From a virus (Duplodnaviria; Heunggongvirae; Uroviricota; Caudoviricetes): a stretch of DNA of 41,611 bases. Numbering within the stretch: position 1 is the first letter of the stretch; each line of letters opens with the position of its first letter. The notes beneath the pieces were generated by a model. The model made no database searches and was not told where the DNA came from. It saw nothing but the letters and a program-made list of their open reading frames with translations. The stretch lies in IMG/VR virus record IMGVR_UViG_2541047801_000004, positions 1 to 41,611 of that record; one strand, given 5' to 3'. Made by a program: the position numbers and the translations under genes. Shown here in pieces: positions 1 through 8,173 of this stretch.

Positions 1-207
1 TCAGCTATCAATGAGAAAATAAAATATAAATAAATCAATGCATTGAAACAAACCACTTAGCAGATACCACGAAAAATACCATGTCTCAATAATAGAGCTG
101 TCTACAGGCTGTTCAGACGAACAATATGGCCGCTCTACTCCTAATAGAGTCCTTAGCTCGGTCACATCACTAATTTCAACATAGATGTGAACAAAATGAG
201 GCATCAA
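1..207 (-). CDS. hypothetical small protein (68 aa), AT-rich, divergent from the ATPase gene
   Basis: Complete ORF from ATG at 207 to the stop at 1-3; no recognisable motif; may be spurious. Confidence 0.25.
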   Translation of the reverse strand: MMPHFVHIYVEISDVTELRTLLGVERPYCSSEQPVDSSIIETWYFSWYLLSGLFQCIDLFIFYFLIDS

Positions 208-223
208 CGCACCTATTCAGTTA

Positions 224-1738
224 GTGTATTTGATATCGTATGTGGCAACAAAAAATGGAGTTACAATCTTGAAAGTAAGCGAGTTATCTAGCCAAATTGG
301 CCGACTTTACGGCTTAAACAACATCAACATAATTATGGGCCGAAACGGTGCGGGAAAAAGTCGTTTCCTTCGTGATATCGAACAAACAATCAGCCAGAAC
401 AAGCAGCAATTTTATGTCCGGTATGTAAGTCCAGAGCGAGCAGGATCGTTCAAGCGTGATGGCACCGTCCTCACAAATATGAGCGACAACCCCGAATGGC
501 TGAGGCACACTCGGGCAGTTAATCAGGCAAGCAACTTCAAAGCTGCATCGGCTATGCTATTTCGCGAGGCCGAGACGCTTTACTTACGTCGACTTGCCAA
601 TACTCCGGAAATTCGAACTGATCTAACGCGAAACTTTCAGACAGACCGATTAAGTAAAATTAATCAGCTTCTCACTAACATTTCGCTCGAGATGGGTAAT
701 GTCGATTATGAGTTTCGATCACTTGTAGATGGTCAGATTATTGATCCGGCCCAAATCAGTAGCGGTGAATCGGAAGCGGTTGCATTAGCCGCGGAAATCA
801 TCTATTTCTTCGACACAATAGATCCGGAGAAATTCAACGTACTCCTCCTCGATGAGCCTGATGTACATCTGCACCCCGACCTCCAAGCTAGACTGGGCAA
901 GCTGATAATCAGTATGCTCGACGAATTTAGAACACACGCGAACAGTATTGCCATATGCTTATCCACCCATAGTTCCCCGCTCGTCTGTTCTCTTGCCGCC
1001 TCCCCATATGTATCAATCGGCACGAAGAGCTTTGCAGTGAATGAAATCTCATTGATACCGGCCAGCGATGAACTTCGAAAGATTGCACCATTCTTCGGGC
1101 ACCCCCTATCGCTTTCTCTTAGCGAAGACGCTGCATTAATTTTGGAAGGAGAGGACGACGAACGAGTCTGGCAACAAGCGGCCAGAACATCACAGGGTCG
1201 AATAAAAATCTTTCCCGTACTAGCAGGTAGCGTAGATCAACAGAGTCAACTTGAGGATTTTTGCGTAGACCTCCTTAGTACACTCTATGACAATCCAATC
1301 GCCTTTTCCCTTCGTGATGGCGATGGTGTAATCAACGAGTCGCTTGAACATCGCCTACCTCTTAAACGCTATCGCTTACGATGCTACGCTATCGAAAATG
1401 TTCTTTTGACTGATTCATGCCTTGCAGTAATGAATGTTACATGGGTGGAATTTGTAGACGCAGCCAAAAAATGGGTTGAGGATAATCAAACACACTCCGA
1501 CATAGCGTTGATTGCAAAACTAATGGAATCGAACGACCGATTGCGTCACAAGAAGATCAAGAAAATCCGCCAACTCGTCTGTGCTATTGTTGAGTGTAAA
1601 AAACCTTGGGAGGTAGTAGTTGGACAAGCAATCGGGGCATTGACCAGAGAAGACCTTGAAAACTCGAATATGTTGATCGATTTTCTTGGAGGAGAGATGG
1701 TCAGCGACGTCATCTTCAGGGACGCAATAAACCCATGA
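224..1738 (+). CDS. ABC-type ATPase fused to a Toprim/DUF4435-like nuclease domain (OLD-family / PARIS / AbiL-like), candidate anti-phage defence protein
   Basis: Walker A GRNGAGKS, ABC-signature-like SSGESE, Walker B LLLDEPDVHLHP, H-loop STHS; C-terminal acidic motifs ILEGEDDE and LRDGDG resembling the Toprim E and DxD; low GC. Start uncertain: GTG 224, or TTG 269 preceded by GGAG. Confidence 0.6.
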   Translation: MYLISYVATKNGVTILKVSELSSQIGRLYGLNNINIIMGRNGAGKSRFLRDIEQTISQNKQQFYVRYVSPERAGSFKRDGTVLTNMSDNPEWLRHTRAVNQASNFKAASAMLFREAETLYLRRLANTPEIRTDLTRNFQTDRLSKINQLLTNISLEMGNVDYEFRSLVDGQIIDPAQISSGESEAVALAAEIIYFFDTIDPEKFNVLLLDEPDVHLHPDLQARLGKLIISMLDEFRTHANSIAICLSTHSSPLVCSLAASPYVSIGTKSFAVNEISLIPASDELRKIAPFFGHPLSLSLSEDAALILEGEDDERVWQQAARTSQGRIKIFPVLAGSVDQQSQLEDFCVDLLSTLYDNPIAFSLRDGDGVINESLEHRLPLKRYRLRCYAIENVLLTDSCLAVMNVTWVEFVDAAKKWVEDNQTHSDIALIAKLMESNDRLRHKKIKKIRQLVCAIVECKKPWEVVVGQAIGALTREDLENSNMLIDFLGGEMVSDVIFRDAINP

Positions 1739-1753
1739 GAATGACCTGATACT

Positions 1754-2149
1754 ATGACCACGATTGATCCGCCCTCATGGTATCAGTATTTATTTTATAA
1801 CCCGCCTCTCAATACACCAAGAGATTGCGGTAAAGTGGAGCAGCATGATTACCAGCTTTATCTGGCGATAAATGATATTGAGCATACGAAAACGAAAGCA
1901 ATGTCATCTAAGACCAATAGTATCTGCGAGCAGTTCCATAAAACGATACTGAACGAGTTTTATCAGGTGACGTTCCGCAAAAAGTTATATGATGATCTTG
2001 AAGCATTACAATCGGTTCTTGATGAATGGCGGGTTCACTATAATAATGAGCGAACCCATCAGGGAAAAATGTGCAGTGGCCGAACGCCGATGGAAACGTT
2101 ACTTGATGGAAAGCACATCTGGGATGAGAAAAACTTAAGCCAGATGTAA
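1754..2149 (+). pseudogene. IS transposase C-terminal remnant (IS481/IS3-like integrase core tail)
   Basis: Only the C-terminal roughly 110 aa of a DDE transposase is present (CEQFHKTILNEF...YNNERTHQG...GRTPMET); the N-terminal catalytic part is absent. Confidence 0.55.
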
Positions 2150-2236
2150 TCTGACAGATACCTTTATAAATAGCCGGTAATTGTCAGATCAGGTCTGATC
2201 TAATACAACTTAACTGTGTTATGAGCAATACTGAGG

Positions 2237-3013
2237 ATGGATATGGAACCAGAGAAATTTGCTGAAACTGCAATAGGATTTACCAAAAGCCCTCTTGGTA
2301 TCATTGCACTCTTTATTGTTCTCGTTTATGGATTTGCCTCTTTCGTCGTTGGCTTTGGTAATGGCTTATCAGAGCATATAGCTCCCCTTATTTATTTCAT
2401 GGTTTTCTTTCCTGTCATTGTGTTTCTTGGCTTTCTCTGGCTTGTTGCGAAACATCATAATAAGCTTTACGGGCCGTCAGATTTCAAAGATGAAAATAAT
2501 TTTTTAAGAGCGCAAATAGCTACAGCAGCATCATTGACCGCCGCCACAGCAAAACAGCCTGAAAATAGTGCAGGGGTCACTGAAAGCCAACTGCGAAAAA
2601 TCGTCAACGTTGTATCCAATGCAAAACGGCAGAGTAAGCATGAAAAATGGCGAAATCGTATTTTATGGGTGGATGATCGACCAGAAAATAATGTTTACGA
2701 AAGACAGGCATTTGAGGCACAGGGAATAGAGTTCGCTTTAGCTCTTTCAACTGACGAAGCCTTAGAATTGTTAAAAACAAATAAGTTTGCAGCTATTATT
2801 TCGGATATGGATCGCAAAGAAGGGGCGCAAGAAGGTTATGTCTTACTAGAAAGATTACGCGCAATGGGAGACAAAACTCCTTTTATGATCTATGCGTCCT
2901 CAGATCTACCAGAGCACAAGAGAATGGCGAGAGAAAGAGGTGCAATTGGCTCCACTAATCGAGCAGAAGAACTCTTTCAAATTGTCATGGGTGCGATTAC
3001 CAATGGCTCATAA
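2237..3013 (+). CDS. membrane-anchored protein with C-terminal receiver (CheY-like REC) domain
   Basis: Two N-terminal hydrophobic helices; C-terminal domain with REC-like signature positions (WVDDRPENN, IISDMDR, MIYASSD, EHKR); low GC. Confidence 0.55.
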   Translation: MDMEPEKFAETAIGFTKSPLGIIALFIVLVYGFASFVVGFGNGLSEHIAPLIYFMVFFPVIVFLGFLWLVAKHHNKLYGPSDFKDENNFLRAQIATAASLTAATAKQPENSAGVTESQLRKIVNVVSNAKRQSKHEKWRNRILWVDDRPENNVYERQAFEAQGIEFALALSTDEALELLKTNKFAAIISDMDRKEGAQEGYVLLERLRAMGDKTPFMIYASSDLPEHKRMARERGAIGSTNRAEELFQIVMGAITNGS

Positions 3014-3230
3014 CAAAGCCATTAAATTCGCCCCCTACGGCTACGGTTGCCGGGCGCTCACAACGGCCAGTATCTCATTTGTCGATTTGATCGATCTCAT
3101 TGTAAGCACTTCCGGCTAGACTGTTTTGGAATACCGCCATTTTGTTGGTAATGGCTTTTATCTTTAGGCCATAGCCGATGTTATAGAGTTACGGCCTTAA
3201 AAATAGAAGTCATACACTCAATGAAAAACC

Positions 3231-3263
3231 AATAAAAAATGCCAGTCAGCAAACTGACTGGCA
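3231..3263 (-). terminator. rho-independent terminator ending the late/lysis transcript
   Basis: 10-bp perfect stem TGCCAGTCAG/CTGACTGGCA with loop CAAA, followed on the minus strand by TTTTTTATT. Confidence 0.6.
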
Positions 3264-3409
3264 TTAAAGTTAGTTGGAAAGGCTTAATTTACTATTTATA
3301 GCCAGTCCTACTCCCACTCAATTATTTACGGCATGCATAACCAATTGACTGGTAACAACTTTCTGTAACCTTATTTTCACCGTACCGTTTTATATACCGT
3401 CACCGGAAA

Positions 3410-3907
3410 TCAGTGCCACGATTTTTGCTTCTTCAGTGAATCGTATTGCTGCTCGCAGAATTCCCCTGCGATACGATACTTTTCAGCCTCAGCTGCTGTT
3501 GCGTTGTAAACTCGGTTGCTTTCTTCAAGCATGTCGGCGAGCACACCGATGACCTTGCTGGCTGGCGTGCCAGGGGGGAAAGATCCGGTATAGTGTTCGG
3601 CGAGCCGCCTGGTTTTGTCAAGCTCGGCGCGCATGCTGTCAGCAGCGGAATTAGCATACTCAGCATCAGCACGCGCCGCATCGATACGGGATTGTGCTTC
3701 ACGTTCAATTTGTGTTTTCTCCTGCTCACGCTGTGACCTTAACTTATCATCAGCCTGTTTCTGATCTTCCTTCGCCTGAGCATACCCGGCATCGTACTGG
3801 CGGCTGCCATGCACATTCCAGGCAACAACGCAGCTGGCCACCAGAGCAGCAAGCATCGACACGATAAGCAACTGTTTCCAGTATGCTTTCACGAATGCCT
3901 TGATCAT
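3410..3907 (-). CDS. i-spanin (Rz-like)
   Basis: N-terminal TM helix followed by a charged coiled-coil-like region; last gene of the lysis cassette; an embedded lipoprotein ORF lies in another frame. Confidence 0.7.
   Translation of the reverse strand: MIKAFVKAYWKQLLIVSMLAALVASCVVAWNVHGSRQYDAGYAQAKEDQKQADDKLRSQREQEKTQIEREAQSRIDAARADAEYANSAADSMRAELDKTRRLAEHYTGSFPPGTPASKVIGVLADMLEESNRVYNATAAEAEKYRIAGEFCEQQYDSLKKQKSWH
3433..3681 (-). CDS. o-spanin (Rz1-like lipoprotein) embedded in Rz
   Basis: Signal peptide with lipobox LLTAC, then a proline-rich mature region; entirely inside the Rz gene in a different frame. Confidence 0.55.
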   Translation of the reverse strand: MRRVLMLSMLIPLLTACAPSLTKPGGSPNTIPDLSPLARQPARSSVCSPTCLKKATEFTTQQQLRLKSIVSQGNSASSNTIH

Positions 3908-4128
3908 ATACTTACCTTCGGCTGAAATCGGCGAACGTTAATTGGCTCACCATATGGCCATGACCAATTCAGCCAGGTAAATGTTTTCAGCTCGCACATC
4001 GCATCGAAAAATTCACCAGGATCGATGTCGGAATAGCTGCAAACTATTTCCAGACCACGTTCTGTTTCTTGCAAAGCAACTGTATCTGTTTCCCAGCGGG
4101 GAATGAGCAAAGAAAATAGTTTATTCAT
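3904..4128 (-). CDS. hypothetical 74-aa protein between endolysin and Rz
   Basis: ATG at 4128 overlaps the endolysin stop (ATGA); no recognisable motif. Confidence 0.4.
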
Positions 4129-4751
4129 AAAAGCACCTTCTTGGCCGAAAGATACCGTACACGGCGATCGTCGATGCCGTTCCGGCCACCATTGATAATC
4201 AGAGTTACACGTGCAATATCGCCGGTATACTTCATGCATCCTTTGCTGGCGAAGAACCACGCCGCGCTACGAGCCGCGTATTCGTCCTGCACCAACAGTT
4301 CAGGATTCTCCAGCAGGTCCACTTTCAGGCCGTTTCCGCAATCACGATAGTTATTCAAACCGGTAATCTGGATAAGTCCGCGGCCACGGTAATTCCAGCC
4401 ATCACCAGAGGCATTGTTCCCCATGCGTTTGCTGTACACCAGATTGGCAATCGCACGCTGGCGCTCAGGTGGCAATGGTGGCTCGCCTGCACGACGACCC
4501 AATGCGTTAGCCTGTCCCTGAGTAAGACGACCGGCACGAACGAAGTTAGCCAGTCCGGTGACGCTGTAATTGAAATTCTCCTGCAACCTGGTGAAGCCAC
4601 CAGACTCATGCCCGACCTGAGCAATAAACATTGCCTGATCTTCGGGTTTTCTGATACCAAACTCTTTCATCGCAGAAGTTATATGCGAGAACCAGCGTGC
4701 GGCCAGAGCCTCGCTAATACCAGCAGCTCGCTGGAATTGTTTAATCTCCAT
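4125..4751 (-). CDS. endolysin, glycoside hydrolase family 19 (chitinase-like lysozyme)
   Basis: 208 aa from ATG 4751; GH19-like motifs ([27 protein letters not shown]); follows two membrane proteins. Confidence 0.75.
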
Positions 4752-5049
4752 GTTTAGACCTCGATGTTTTGAAAATCTGAACAACGTTACCGCGTGTTTT
4801 AATAACCGCGGCAAGCATGACAGCGTTGATAATGACCTCAGATAAATCCACAGCCATTGGCGTACGTAACCAGATTGCATAGGCGACACGAACAGGAATA
4901 CTGGCCGCAGCAACAATAAGGAAATAAGCAAGCCACCCTCCCCATCTTCGATGTTGAGAGCCGTTACGCCGGAATGTGACAACGCGAATTGCTATGCCAG
5001 TACAAATAATTGCATTGGTGATAAGCAAAACAAGCTCATTAGTTACCAT
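4741..5049 (-). CDS. holin/antiholin-like membrane protein
   Basis: 102 aa, about three predicted TM segments, immediately upstream of the endolysin, overlapping neighbours. Confidence 0.5.
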
Positions 5050-5440
5050 CGCCTTTTCTCCCAGGAATTAACTGGCGTGGATTATCAGAACGGTGATAGA
5101 GCCATATACCAATTCGCACTGCGACAATTGCTGACACGAATGCGCCAGCAGAGAAAACAATCCCTTTCTCGAAAGAGTCCTGCGTGATGGTAGGTATCAT
5201 GCTGGCTATTCCGATAAGAATTGATGTTGTTGGTTTGTAAAAGAGAAGACCACAAAGAAAGCTGAGTATCGACAAGAGTACACGACGACGAACAGGATAC
5301 TCTACAGCAGAGGTAACAAATATTACCGCACCAGCCAGAGCACCGAGAGCCACCTCTGGCGGAACGCCGTAGACGACAGAGGCCAGCGCACCCAAGCTTA
5401 ACCCTTGATTCAGTGAATCCGCCGTAACCGTGCCATTCAT
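5039..5440 (-). CDS. membrane protein, putative holin
   Basis: About 133 aa with four hydrophobic segments; ATG 5440 with GGTGG RBS (alternative GTG 5449); first gene of the lysis cassette. Confidence 0.5.
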   Translation of the reverse strand: MNGTVTADSLNQGLSLGALASVVYGVPPEVALGALAGAVIFVTSAVEYPVRRRVLLSILSFLCGLLFYKPTTSILIGIASMIPTITQDSFEKGIVFSAGAFVSAIVAVRIGIWLYHRSDNPRQLIPGRKGDGN

Positions 5441-5537
5441 GGTAACCACCGTTTATTGTGCATAAAAACCCCCTTAGAAGATGAGGTCCATCATACACAA
5501 TAAACCATTTACGGATAATAATTACCTAAACTTGGTC

Positions 5538-8173
5538 TTATTTTGATTCCAATAGTTCGAGTCGCTCTTCAATACGATCGCATCGGCGGCGCTGATATGC
5601 AGCCTCAAGCCAAGCGCACTGGTCAGGCCGTATGCCCCATGAACTACCCGCTTTTTTAACCAGCCTCTGTTCTCCGGTGTCATATTCGACGGTGACCAAC
5701 TCACCAGACGCATCGGTAATCTCTTTAGTCGCGATTACCGGCTCAAAAATATCGTCCCACTCGTCATAGCAAAGAAGGCCAAATCTGGTTCCATCAATTC
5801 CGTGCGCCAGGAATACATCTCTTACCTGCTGAGCCATGACGCCAAAATGCCATCTGGCACCATCGCCCTTCATGGATATAGCGTCGAGCCATCGATACGC
5901 CACAACAGAAATATCGCCCCAGGCATCAAGAATGCTGTCTCTATCAGAAGAAAGCATTTCACTTAAATCTGATATTGCCTCGGGATTGGTTTTCAGCGTG
6001 GCATCTGATGAAACGGTTGGGGCATTTGCAAAGTAGGCGTCTTTAATACGAAACGATGCCTGACCAAAATTATAGGTATTGTCAGCAAACGGGCGAAGAC
6101 CTGTATTATAAAACCGCCAGCGTATGGTTCCTCCCAATGCTGTCGGGTCGCTGTTGCATGCAATATCCACCGTGGTGGCAGACCTAAACACAGAAGAACT
6201 ACCGCCCAATACCAAGCTATTTGCGCTAGCTGTAGCCTGCTGGTCAAGGACCAATATTTTCTGAGAGTTTGTAGTTGCACCGGCATATGATGATGCAGTG
6301 ATGCGGTTTAATTGGTTTGTATCAGGATCTGCGTTTTGCTGAATGGTTAAGTTAGATGCCCACTGTGCCGGTCGCTGGCGCACAAATACAAAGTCACCAG
6401 AAGGATTAGTTGCAACCAAATAACTAATGCCACTATCAGATGAATAATAGTTGACTATAAAAGTCTGATTATTCGCATTCAGTATTTCAACATATGTGCT
6501 GGAAGGGATTGCCACGCCAGATATATCAGCAATGCTGACAGTCCCTGTGTAAAAATTAAATGCCTTCTGACTCATCTCCTGCATATAGCGAAGAATTTCA
6601 GTCATGTTAGTGAACAACGTACCATCTACAGGGTTAACAATCCCCTTCGCACTACGGGGATATACCCCAATGCTCGCGTGATCGATATCAAATCCGCGGT
6701 AAAGCCTGGATGCAGGTGTAAAATCGATAGCATCTTTATCAGTGGAGAAATCTTCGAAAATAACCAAACCTGAATTGTAAGGTTCAGAGCCAGTTCTTTC
6801 CTGATGAATGTAAAGTGAATAAATGGATTTTCCATCCTGAGAAACACAAACGCCTTCATTTTCTATGCGAGTGACGTTCAATCCTGCGGCTTTCATTAAA
6901 TCCATCATGGCCTGAGGATGAAGCATTGATTCAGTTCGCTTTGTACCGTCAGGGTTAAAAACTTTGCTGCCCTGATATTCGTTATATCCTGCGCTTCCTG
7001 CCCCATCAGCTATGAAGCCGCCATAGCCGCAGACAAAGTAGTTATCACCTACCGCAATACCCTGACGCTTGTTGAAATAAGGCGCATAAGGTGAGGTGCT
7101 TTTAGTTACATACCCAACATCATGTAACGGCAGCGTTATAGTTGACAGGCGATTGAAACCACTGTCGAACACTGCAAGTACAGTTCTTGTGATTTTCTGT
7201 CCTACTTCTGGCGCATTCTGCTCAACGAGCCATATACCTCTTCTGTAGCTGAACTGGTTGAATAATCCAACATCATGGTTTTGTACAAGAGGCAGATTGC
7301 TTCCGTATAATGCCCCCTCCATATTAAATTCACGCAGTATTCCGTTTGTGTGACCAACAAACATTTTTTTTGGGCCATAGTCTGACGTAACCACGATTCC
7401 TTCAGCAGCGAAGCCTGGGCCGCCAGCCTGAACATAGAAATAACCTTGATAAATACCAGATATGTTAAATACTGCGACGACATTATTCGTCTGTTTAGGC
7501 TCAAATGGATAAGTGATGTATATCAAATCTTCGCTAACGCAGAATCCTTGAGGATACATATAAGTTGCTGACGGGTTAGCAGCCATAATCGCATCATATT
7601 CAGGAAAAAGAAGCGGCATCGTAGCTACAATCTTTCTTTGGTGATTTGTAAAAATATCGTTTTTAGCGCTGTTAGGTGTAGGCGTTACACCTCCAGTAAA
7701 AAGATCATCAACATAACCTTTATTGACAGCATCGTTTCTGTCAGTGGCATTTGCTAGATTTGATATCTTATTATTTTTTGCATCATAATAGTTAGCCAGA
7801 ATGCTTGGTTTTATAAGTGCTAACCTCATCCATGAAAAACACTTTTGAATAAGCATTGTCAGTTTATCGAACGCGTCTTCATGTACCTCAGCGAAGAACT
7901 TACCCTGATTACGCAAATCAGTATCCTGCGTAACCGGGAGCTCTCGTGATATAGAAATATGATAACCGTTAGCCAACGCCTTCGACAGAATTACATTACC
8001 GCCATTATATCCTCCAGCATTGGTTACTGTGTAGTCAGTATCCAGAACCAATTCTGTTACGTTCCCGTTCAGGTCAGACACCTGAACAACCAGGTCCGGA
8101 AGGTATACGGAAATGATGTCGTAGCTCCGTTACCAGTGTATTCGTTGTGGTCAACTTCGGTTGAGACCGTCAT
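5538..8173 (-). CDS. tailspike/tail fibre protein with C-terminal intramolecular-chaperone (peptidase S74-like) domain; 5' end frameshifted (possible pseudogene or assembly error)
   Basis: ATG 8173 with GGAG RBS encodes MTVSTEVDHNEYTGNGATTSFPYTF, then hits TGA at 8069-8071; the 847-aa body (DLVVQVSDLNGNVTEL...) is in another frame open from 8129; the frames meet at 8097-8099. Confidence 0.7.

Follow-up and report, generated by a model that had tools for sequence, protein, structure and literature searches.

An intact member of the IS481 family of insertion sequences (IS) is carried by plasmid pJNE25-005_1 (NZ_AP045058.1, 56427–57570; L004 2233–3376). This copy is 1,144 bp long, is bounded by 26-bp left and right terminal inverted repeats (IRL, L004 2233–2258; IRR, L004 3351–3376) and a 7-bp target-site duplication (TSD), TATCAGT, and encodes a 327-aa transposase with the catalytic residues D151, D215 and E255. 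The characterised IS481 promoters, Pin and Pout, sit at the left end of the element, and neighbouring genes can be driven by IS481-type elements (PMC6161684). The same IS lineage has also left relics, of which the ylbG pseudogene of Escherichia coli K-12 (NZ_CP025268.1, 528694–529168; H70) is the commonest among the matches listed; in ylbG the left 473 bp survive and match IS positions 1–473 at 93.7%. Fragments of this IS are found in 3,610 of 5,426 complete E. coli genomes, with at least 80% of the element in only 77, and its relics are therefore commonplace in E. coli. A second group of precedents concerns integration at the 3′ end of guaA: GAGTGGGA is the published att core of GIsul2 (PMC9376610), and the same guaA core has been published for phage vB_EcoP_ZX5 (PMC9782041).

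Here, we describe a relic of this IS in a 41,611-nt stretch of DNA recorded as a Caudoviricetes virus (IMG/VR record IMGVR_UViG_2541047801_000004), referred to below as the window. It lies between a gene for an ABC-type ATPase and a gene for a membrane-anchored protein with a receiver (REC) domain, and it is very probably the non-functional right-hand third of an IS481-family IS. Like the intact plasmid copy, to which it is 86–88% identical over the last ~382 bp, the remnant has the same 26-bp IRR and the transposase C terminus including the E of the DDE triad. Unlike that copy, it amounts to one third of the element and is without the IRL, the HTH region, D151, D215 and a TSD. It also differs from ylbG, which retains the left (HTH) end of the IS at a different chromosomal site, whereas the remnant in the window retains the right end and occurs in 28 of the 5,426 genomes.

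The original prediction placed the remnant at positions 1754–2149. These coordinates correctly delimit an open reading frame (ORF) of 131 aa on the plus strand, which matches a Pfam family and, in part, an NCBIfam model, but they do not give the extent of the IS-derived DNA, which begins at 1824–1826 rather than at 1754 and runs past the stop codon to the IRR tip at 2207 (plus strand). Descent from the IS481 family is indicated by 86–88% nucleotide identity over ~382–394 bp to three larger IS copies, one frameshifted (L002), one interrupted (L003) and one intact (L004, the plasmid copy); the alignments run from window position 1824–1826 to 2207–2217, that is, to the IRR tip or at most ~10 bp past it. 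At the protein level, the ORF matches the Pfam integrase core family rve_3 over residues 41–104 (E = 5.5e-10). Against the NCBIfam IS481-family model NF033577, it scores 81.1 bits over model positions 206–283 of 284, below the curated cut-off of 224 bits, whereas the intact 327-aa relative scores 285.8 bits over positions 2–283 and exceeds the cut-off. When this relative was used as a tblastn query, its residues 221–327 aligned to the window with 86% identity. The transposase pseudogene fragment itself (1826–2149, plus strand) consists of residues 221–327 of 327 and the stop codon, which is the C-terminal 33% of the transposase and corresponds to ~33% of the element likewise. It begins six codons past the second aspartate and lacks the N-terminal HTH region. 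The DDE triad of the rve domain is therefore incomplete, as the remnant starts at residue 221: E255 alone is kept, as ORF residue 59, and D151 and D215 are gone. The fragment is thus, as had been proposed, the C-terminal third of a transposase with no intact catalytic core, and not a full-length functional gene of another family.

A search for residual inverted repeats and TSDs gave an asymmetric result. The 26-bp IRR (TGTCAGATCAGGTCTGATCTAATACA; 2182–2207, plus strand), located by alignment to the IRL and IRR of the intact copy, is itself intact, whereas the IRL is absent from the window, where IS homology opens at the internal position 1824–1826. No TSD was found: ACTTAAC, which follows the IRR, does not recur at the left junction, where CACCAAGAG is followed directly by ATTGCGG. 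With the IRL, the HTH region, D151 and D215 all gone, the remnant is non-autonomous and incompetent for transposition. An Rfam scan of positions 1600–2400 (E ≤ 1) returned no RNA family, and PADLOC gave no match to the remnant. In E. coli strain D8, RefSeq/PGAP annotates the equivalent of window positions 1826–2149 as a pseudogene (‘integrase core domain-containing protein; incomplete; missing N-terminus’), and the remnant is accordingly an ordinary IS481-family relic already flagged by standard annotation. Megablast against the complete E. coli genomes identified the DNA as E. coli chromosome and showed that the stretch 1600–2300 is essentially identical in the 28 genomes that contain it (identical in 23 of the 25 genomes among the matches listed, and 99.9% in the other two).

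The first 24 codons of the 131-aa ORF (1754–1825, plus strand) are not IS DNA. Alignments with IS-free loci assign them to the ATPase gene’s own 3′ flank (1739–1824): homology to the window extends to exactly 1824 in Serratia (92%) and to 1812 in Pseudomonas aeruginosa (74%). The ORF is therefore a chance in-frame fusion of 24 codons of ATPase 3′ flank to the IS fragment. Its ATG (1754) falls inside the 5′ arm of a conserved hairpin that is followed by a T-rich run (1746–1800, plus strand), and the sequence upstream contains no convincing Shine–Dalgarno motif. The 12-bp stem of the hairpin pairs 1746–1757 with 1775–1786, and the fold has a predicted energy of −18.9 kcal/mol (z = −4.08), which 0 of 200 shuffled sequences equalled. 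Just 3′ of the ATPase stop codon, a perfect 10-bp inverted repeat, GATACCATGA…TCATGGTATC, is followed by AGTATTTATTTTAT. Serratia, P. aeruginosa, Vreelandella and Carnimonas all retain the stem GATACCATGA/TCATGGTATC, with divergent loops; across genera (the window; L006, L008, L019 and L029) the stem is invariant and the 15–19-nt loop varies. The hairpin and T-run are probably the ATPase gene’s own terminator. They could alternatively be a protein-binding or recombination site, and the conserved stem showed no covariation that would tell a terminator from either. A simple terminator scan missed the hairpin because its loop is longer than 8 nt.

Orthologous remnants carry different lesions. In Klebsiella aerogenes (L005), two codons have become stops (GAG to TAG and TGG to TAG), a 1-nt deletion causes a −1 frameshift and 5 bp are deleted at the IRR tip. 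The Kluyvera sichuanensis remnant (L010) has lost 12 bp just downstream of the catalytic E and carries a TAT to TAG change, and two metagenome remnants carry a 45-bp deletion (L064) and a 1-nt insertion with a +1 frameshift (L067). An uninterrupted frame survives only in E. coli, Kluyvera sp. 142359 and the metagenome contig L068. Between E. coli and K. aerogenes, the remnant has a dN/dS of 0.86 (Nei–Gojobori), compared with 0.10 for REC and 0.13 for the ATPase in the same genome pair; the values against K. sichuanensis (0.33) and Kluyvera sp. (0.35, from only five differences) fall below 1 and count against neutral decay, although both come from few sites. Against intact IS copies, dN/dS is 0.06–0.15, which reflects divergence from the time when the element still worked. 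Because the stops, frameshifts and deletions in the orthologues are independent, we conclude that the fragment decays neutrally and that no selection acts on its reading frame.

The gene on the left (269–1738, plus strand; ORF open from 224) is not IS-derived and encodes a 489-aa ABC-type ATPase with Pfam matches to AAA_15 (5.5e-14) and AAA_21 (1.3e-11). Its homologues in Gamma- and Alphaproteobacteria are 484–491 aa long and 66–94% identical at 99–100% coverage, and the C terminus is judged intact since these homologues span the full length. Conservation across classes is unusually high, with ~80% amino acid identity between E. coli, P. aeruginosa and Rhizobiales (window 269–1738; L006–L009 and L018–L060), and the ATPase appears as a module of about 1.9 kb with a single gene. 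Neither a REC gene nor the IS was found downstream of the ATPase in 47 other loci with up to 3–4 kb of downstream DNA, shortened by contig ends in a few of them; this set comprises 42 of 43 species loci, the Serratia and P. aeruginosa loci and one with a nearly empty downstream flank. An ATPase followed by both the IS fragment and REC was found only in E. coli, K. aerogenes (L005), Kluyvera sp. (L018) and seven metagenome contigs. In Serratia and Vreelandella, the ATPase module stands alone beside guaA. In these two genera and in E. coli, the ATPase lies at the guaA 3′ end with att-core-like copies on both sides and no integrase.

The gene on the right (2243–3013, plus strand) encodes the 256-aa membrane-anchored receiver protein (Pfam Response_reg, 1.8e-07), which combines a transmembrane (TM) segment and a receiver domain without an output domain, and which is usually encoded by a solitary gene in unrelated contexts. 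We found 2,177 homologues; among the matches listed, most are 255–258 aa long, and the best 120 of the 2,177 are 67–92% identical across Proteobacteria. Loci with REC and no ATPase are found in K. sichuanensis, Dickeya and metagenomes (L010–L017). PADLOC had no match for REC and only partial ATPase-domain matches for its neighbour (PDC-M01A, AriA and AriAB), which do not allow assignment to a named defence system. The IS ends 35 bp before the REC start codon (2243), leaving a native spacer (2208–2242, plus strand) that holds a GAGG Shine–Dalgarno motif at 2233–2236, and the IS-free REC loci L015–L017 align from window position 2220. The IS therefore replaced what preceded REC and displaced its former upstream region.

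Together, the ATPase, the IS remnant and REC make up a 3.3-kb island that is integrated in the guaA 3′ end with duplication of the core TCCCACTCA, as seen by comparing K-12 with D8. At the empty site in K-12, the yfgI terminator is followed by TCATTCCCACTCAAT, the complement of the guaA 3′ end; in D8 and in the window, the island has TCCCACTCA on its left and TCCCACTCAAT on its right. The latter copy (3312–3322), again the complement of the guaA 3′ end, is both the right end of the island and the integration point of the prophage. The core, GAGTGGGA with the complement TCCCACTC(A), is the one that bounds GIsul2, its att-flanked CR2–sul2 unit and vB_EcoP_ZX5. Unlike other elements that integrate at the guaA 3′ end, the island encodes no integrase: a cognate tyrosine integrase was sought among its contents and none was found. 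The island may either be mobilised in trans, as the CR2–sul2 unit is, or be the leftover of a larger element. Positions 1–3322 of the window match strain D8 at 99.97% and diverge beyond that point. In D8, the island lies between yfgI and guaA without a prophage there, and we therefore reject the proposal that the genes flanking the remnant are prophage cargo.

The prophage occupies 3312–41611: from the att core TCCCACTCAAT onward all of the DNA is phage, and guaA and the other prophage end lie outside the window. It carries a lysis cassette at about 3410–5449 and an 847-aa tail-fibre-like gene at 5538–8081, both on the minus strand. Other loci show further layers at this hotspot. In a Kluyvera-like contig (L011), another element, with a KAP NTPase and a relaxase, sits at the same guaA core after REC; over its first ~95 bp (L011 1552–1645), this element shares 73% identity with the left end of the ATPase module (L001 6396–6490, window −5 to 89), which suggests an att-arm common to guaA-targeting elements. 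In the metagenome contig L068 (8288–10642), ~2.3 kb of extra DNA lies between REC and guaA.

The left edge of the remnant, at the breakpoint 1824–1826, is where ATPase-module homology ends and IS homology begins. Matches to ATPase-only loci end at exactly 1824, and the match to the IS remnant and REC of K. sichuanensis starts at exactly 1824. At this joint, the ATPase module breaks off within its 3′ flank and abuts the IS at transposase codon 221; relative to Serratia and Pseudomonas, the module has lost its last ~95 bp, including a guaA-like copy of the att core. Microhomology at the joint is imperfect, ~9 bp at best (CACCAAGAG versus CACGAAATA). Because the normal end of the module is missing, the joint is more readily explained by a deletion than by simple insertion, and the left boundary would be a deletion or illegitimate-recombination junction. 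The earlier account of a decayed IS is thus right, but insertion and decay alone give an incomplete picture.

The arrangement in K. sichuanensis, which has the IS remnant and REC and lacks the ATPase, indicates that the remnant belongs historically with REC. There, the remnant starts at residue 214 (L010 3571–3594, compared with window 1824), with seven extra codons that place its left end 21–23 bp further left, and abuts a yfgI-type terminator directly. No more than about 23 bp separate the two IS truncation points, at residues 214 and 221. No parsimonious single-step scheme derives the K. sichuanensis and E. coli arrangements from one another. When metagenome contigs were scanned for exact matches to the junction of the IS flank and REC, all seven contigs recovered had the three-part island with an identical breakpoint, and no ancestor with a full-length IS or without an IS was found. 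We infer a tentative order of events and a mechanism for the junction. The IS would have inserted 35 bp upstream of the TM–REC gene. Its left two thirds, with the promoter, the HTH domain and both aspartates, would then have been lost to a deletion or illegitimate recombination that brought the interior of the IS up against the shortened 3′ flank of a separate ATPase module. This would have produced the composite 3.3-kb island of ATPase, IS scar and REC between copies of the guaA 3′-end att core.

According to the original prediction, the insertion may have disrupted co-transcription of the flanking genes; on this account, an IS hit the spacer of a two-gene operon of ATPase/Toprim and TM–REC, decayed in place and broke its co-transcription. 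The two genes do share a strand, with 504 bp between them, and they occur as a pair in E. coli, K. aerogenes, Kluyvera sp. and the seven metagenome contigs. Comparison with IS-free loci speaks against a former operon: the ATPase and REC were never found adjacent without the IS scar, and each is solitary elsewhere (the 47 ATPase loci; REC in L010–L017), so their co-occurrence is not conserved across taxa. The conserved hairpin and T-run belonging to the ATPase lie upstream of the remnant, the deletion joint lacks the normal end of the ATPase module and K. sichuanensis has the remnant and REC without the ATPase. An operon split by the IS is therefore very unlikely, since the co-occurrence data already go most of the way to refuting it; the two flanking genes are instead independent acquisitions. 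If the remnant did not interrupt an operon, it might still have been kept for the use of REC, its 3′ part providing a promoter or 5′ leader. The displacement of the native upstream region to within 35 bp of the REC start, the retention of the remnant in all known copies of this REC lineage and the precedent of genes driven by IS481-type elements (PMC6161684) are consistent with such exaptation. So are two weak promoter-like sites, one at 2019–2047 and one a hybrid, with a −35 TTGTCA in the IRR (2181–2186), a 17-bp spacer and a −10 TACAAC (2204–2209) that straddles the IS end. However, Pin and Pout belong to the left end (PMC6161684), the part deleted here, and a consensus promoter scan found sites no more numerous than in shuffled sequence (three, versus a mean of 4.3); a lenient manual scan yielded weak, poorly conserved candidates only. 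The hybrid site is altered in K. aerogenes by the loss of 5 bp from the IRR tip and in K. sichuanensis by a change from TTGTCA to TTATCA, and the remnant may persist simply because it arose once, recently, and nothing selects for the loss of its 380 bp. A promoter-donor role for the remnant thus has little support, and we consider exaptation for REC unlikely.

The idea that the 131-aa ORF is itself a functional, domesticated small protein, such as an inhibitor of transposition or a regulator that arose from the transposase C terminus, draws on the open frame in E. coli, Kluyvera sp. 142359 and L068. Against this, the ORF is independently broken in four of seven orthologous lineages, its start codon is buried in the hairpin stem without an evident Shine–Dalgarno motif, its N-terminal 24 residues are translated intergenic sequence, the residues around the catalytic E have changed from TNGICERF to TNSICEQF and PGAP labels the fragment a pseudogene. 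A domesticated protein is accordingly the least credible of these readings, at a very low probability, although a small protein could still be expressed from the frames that remain open. A broader scenario would assign the scar a part in the spread of the island: an IS-associated deletion would have removed the att copy between two guaA-targeted cassettes and created one att-flanked, integrase-less unit that is now spreading among enterobacteria as a single piece; integrases specific for guaA would mobilise it in trans, and the scar might act as the REC leader or promoter. We regard this scenario as unlikely. The preferred reading remains that of a neutrally decaying IS fragment at a deletion or recombination joint.

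The remnant is of small importance in itself: transposase relics are numerous in E. coli, and automatic annotation already labels this one a pseudogene. The island with the identical breakpoint is present in E. coli, K. aerogenes, Kluyvera and gut and environmental metagenomes, and the shared breakpoint at codon 221 serves as a marker of a single origin of the ATPase–scar–REC island in E. coli, K. aerogenes and Kluyvera. As the ATPase and REC were separately acquired, they are not to be treated as a two-gene defence operon. The boundaries at 1824 and 2207 help to delimit the modules in the guaA 3′-end integration hotspot, to which the present analysis makes a modest addition: the scar marks the single-origin fusion of two independent modules at this site.
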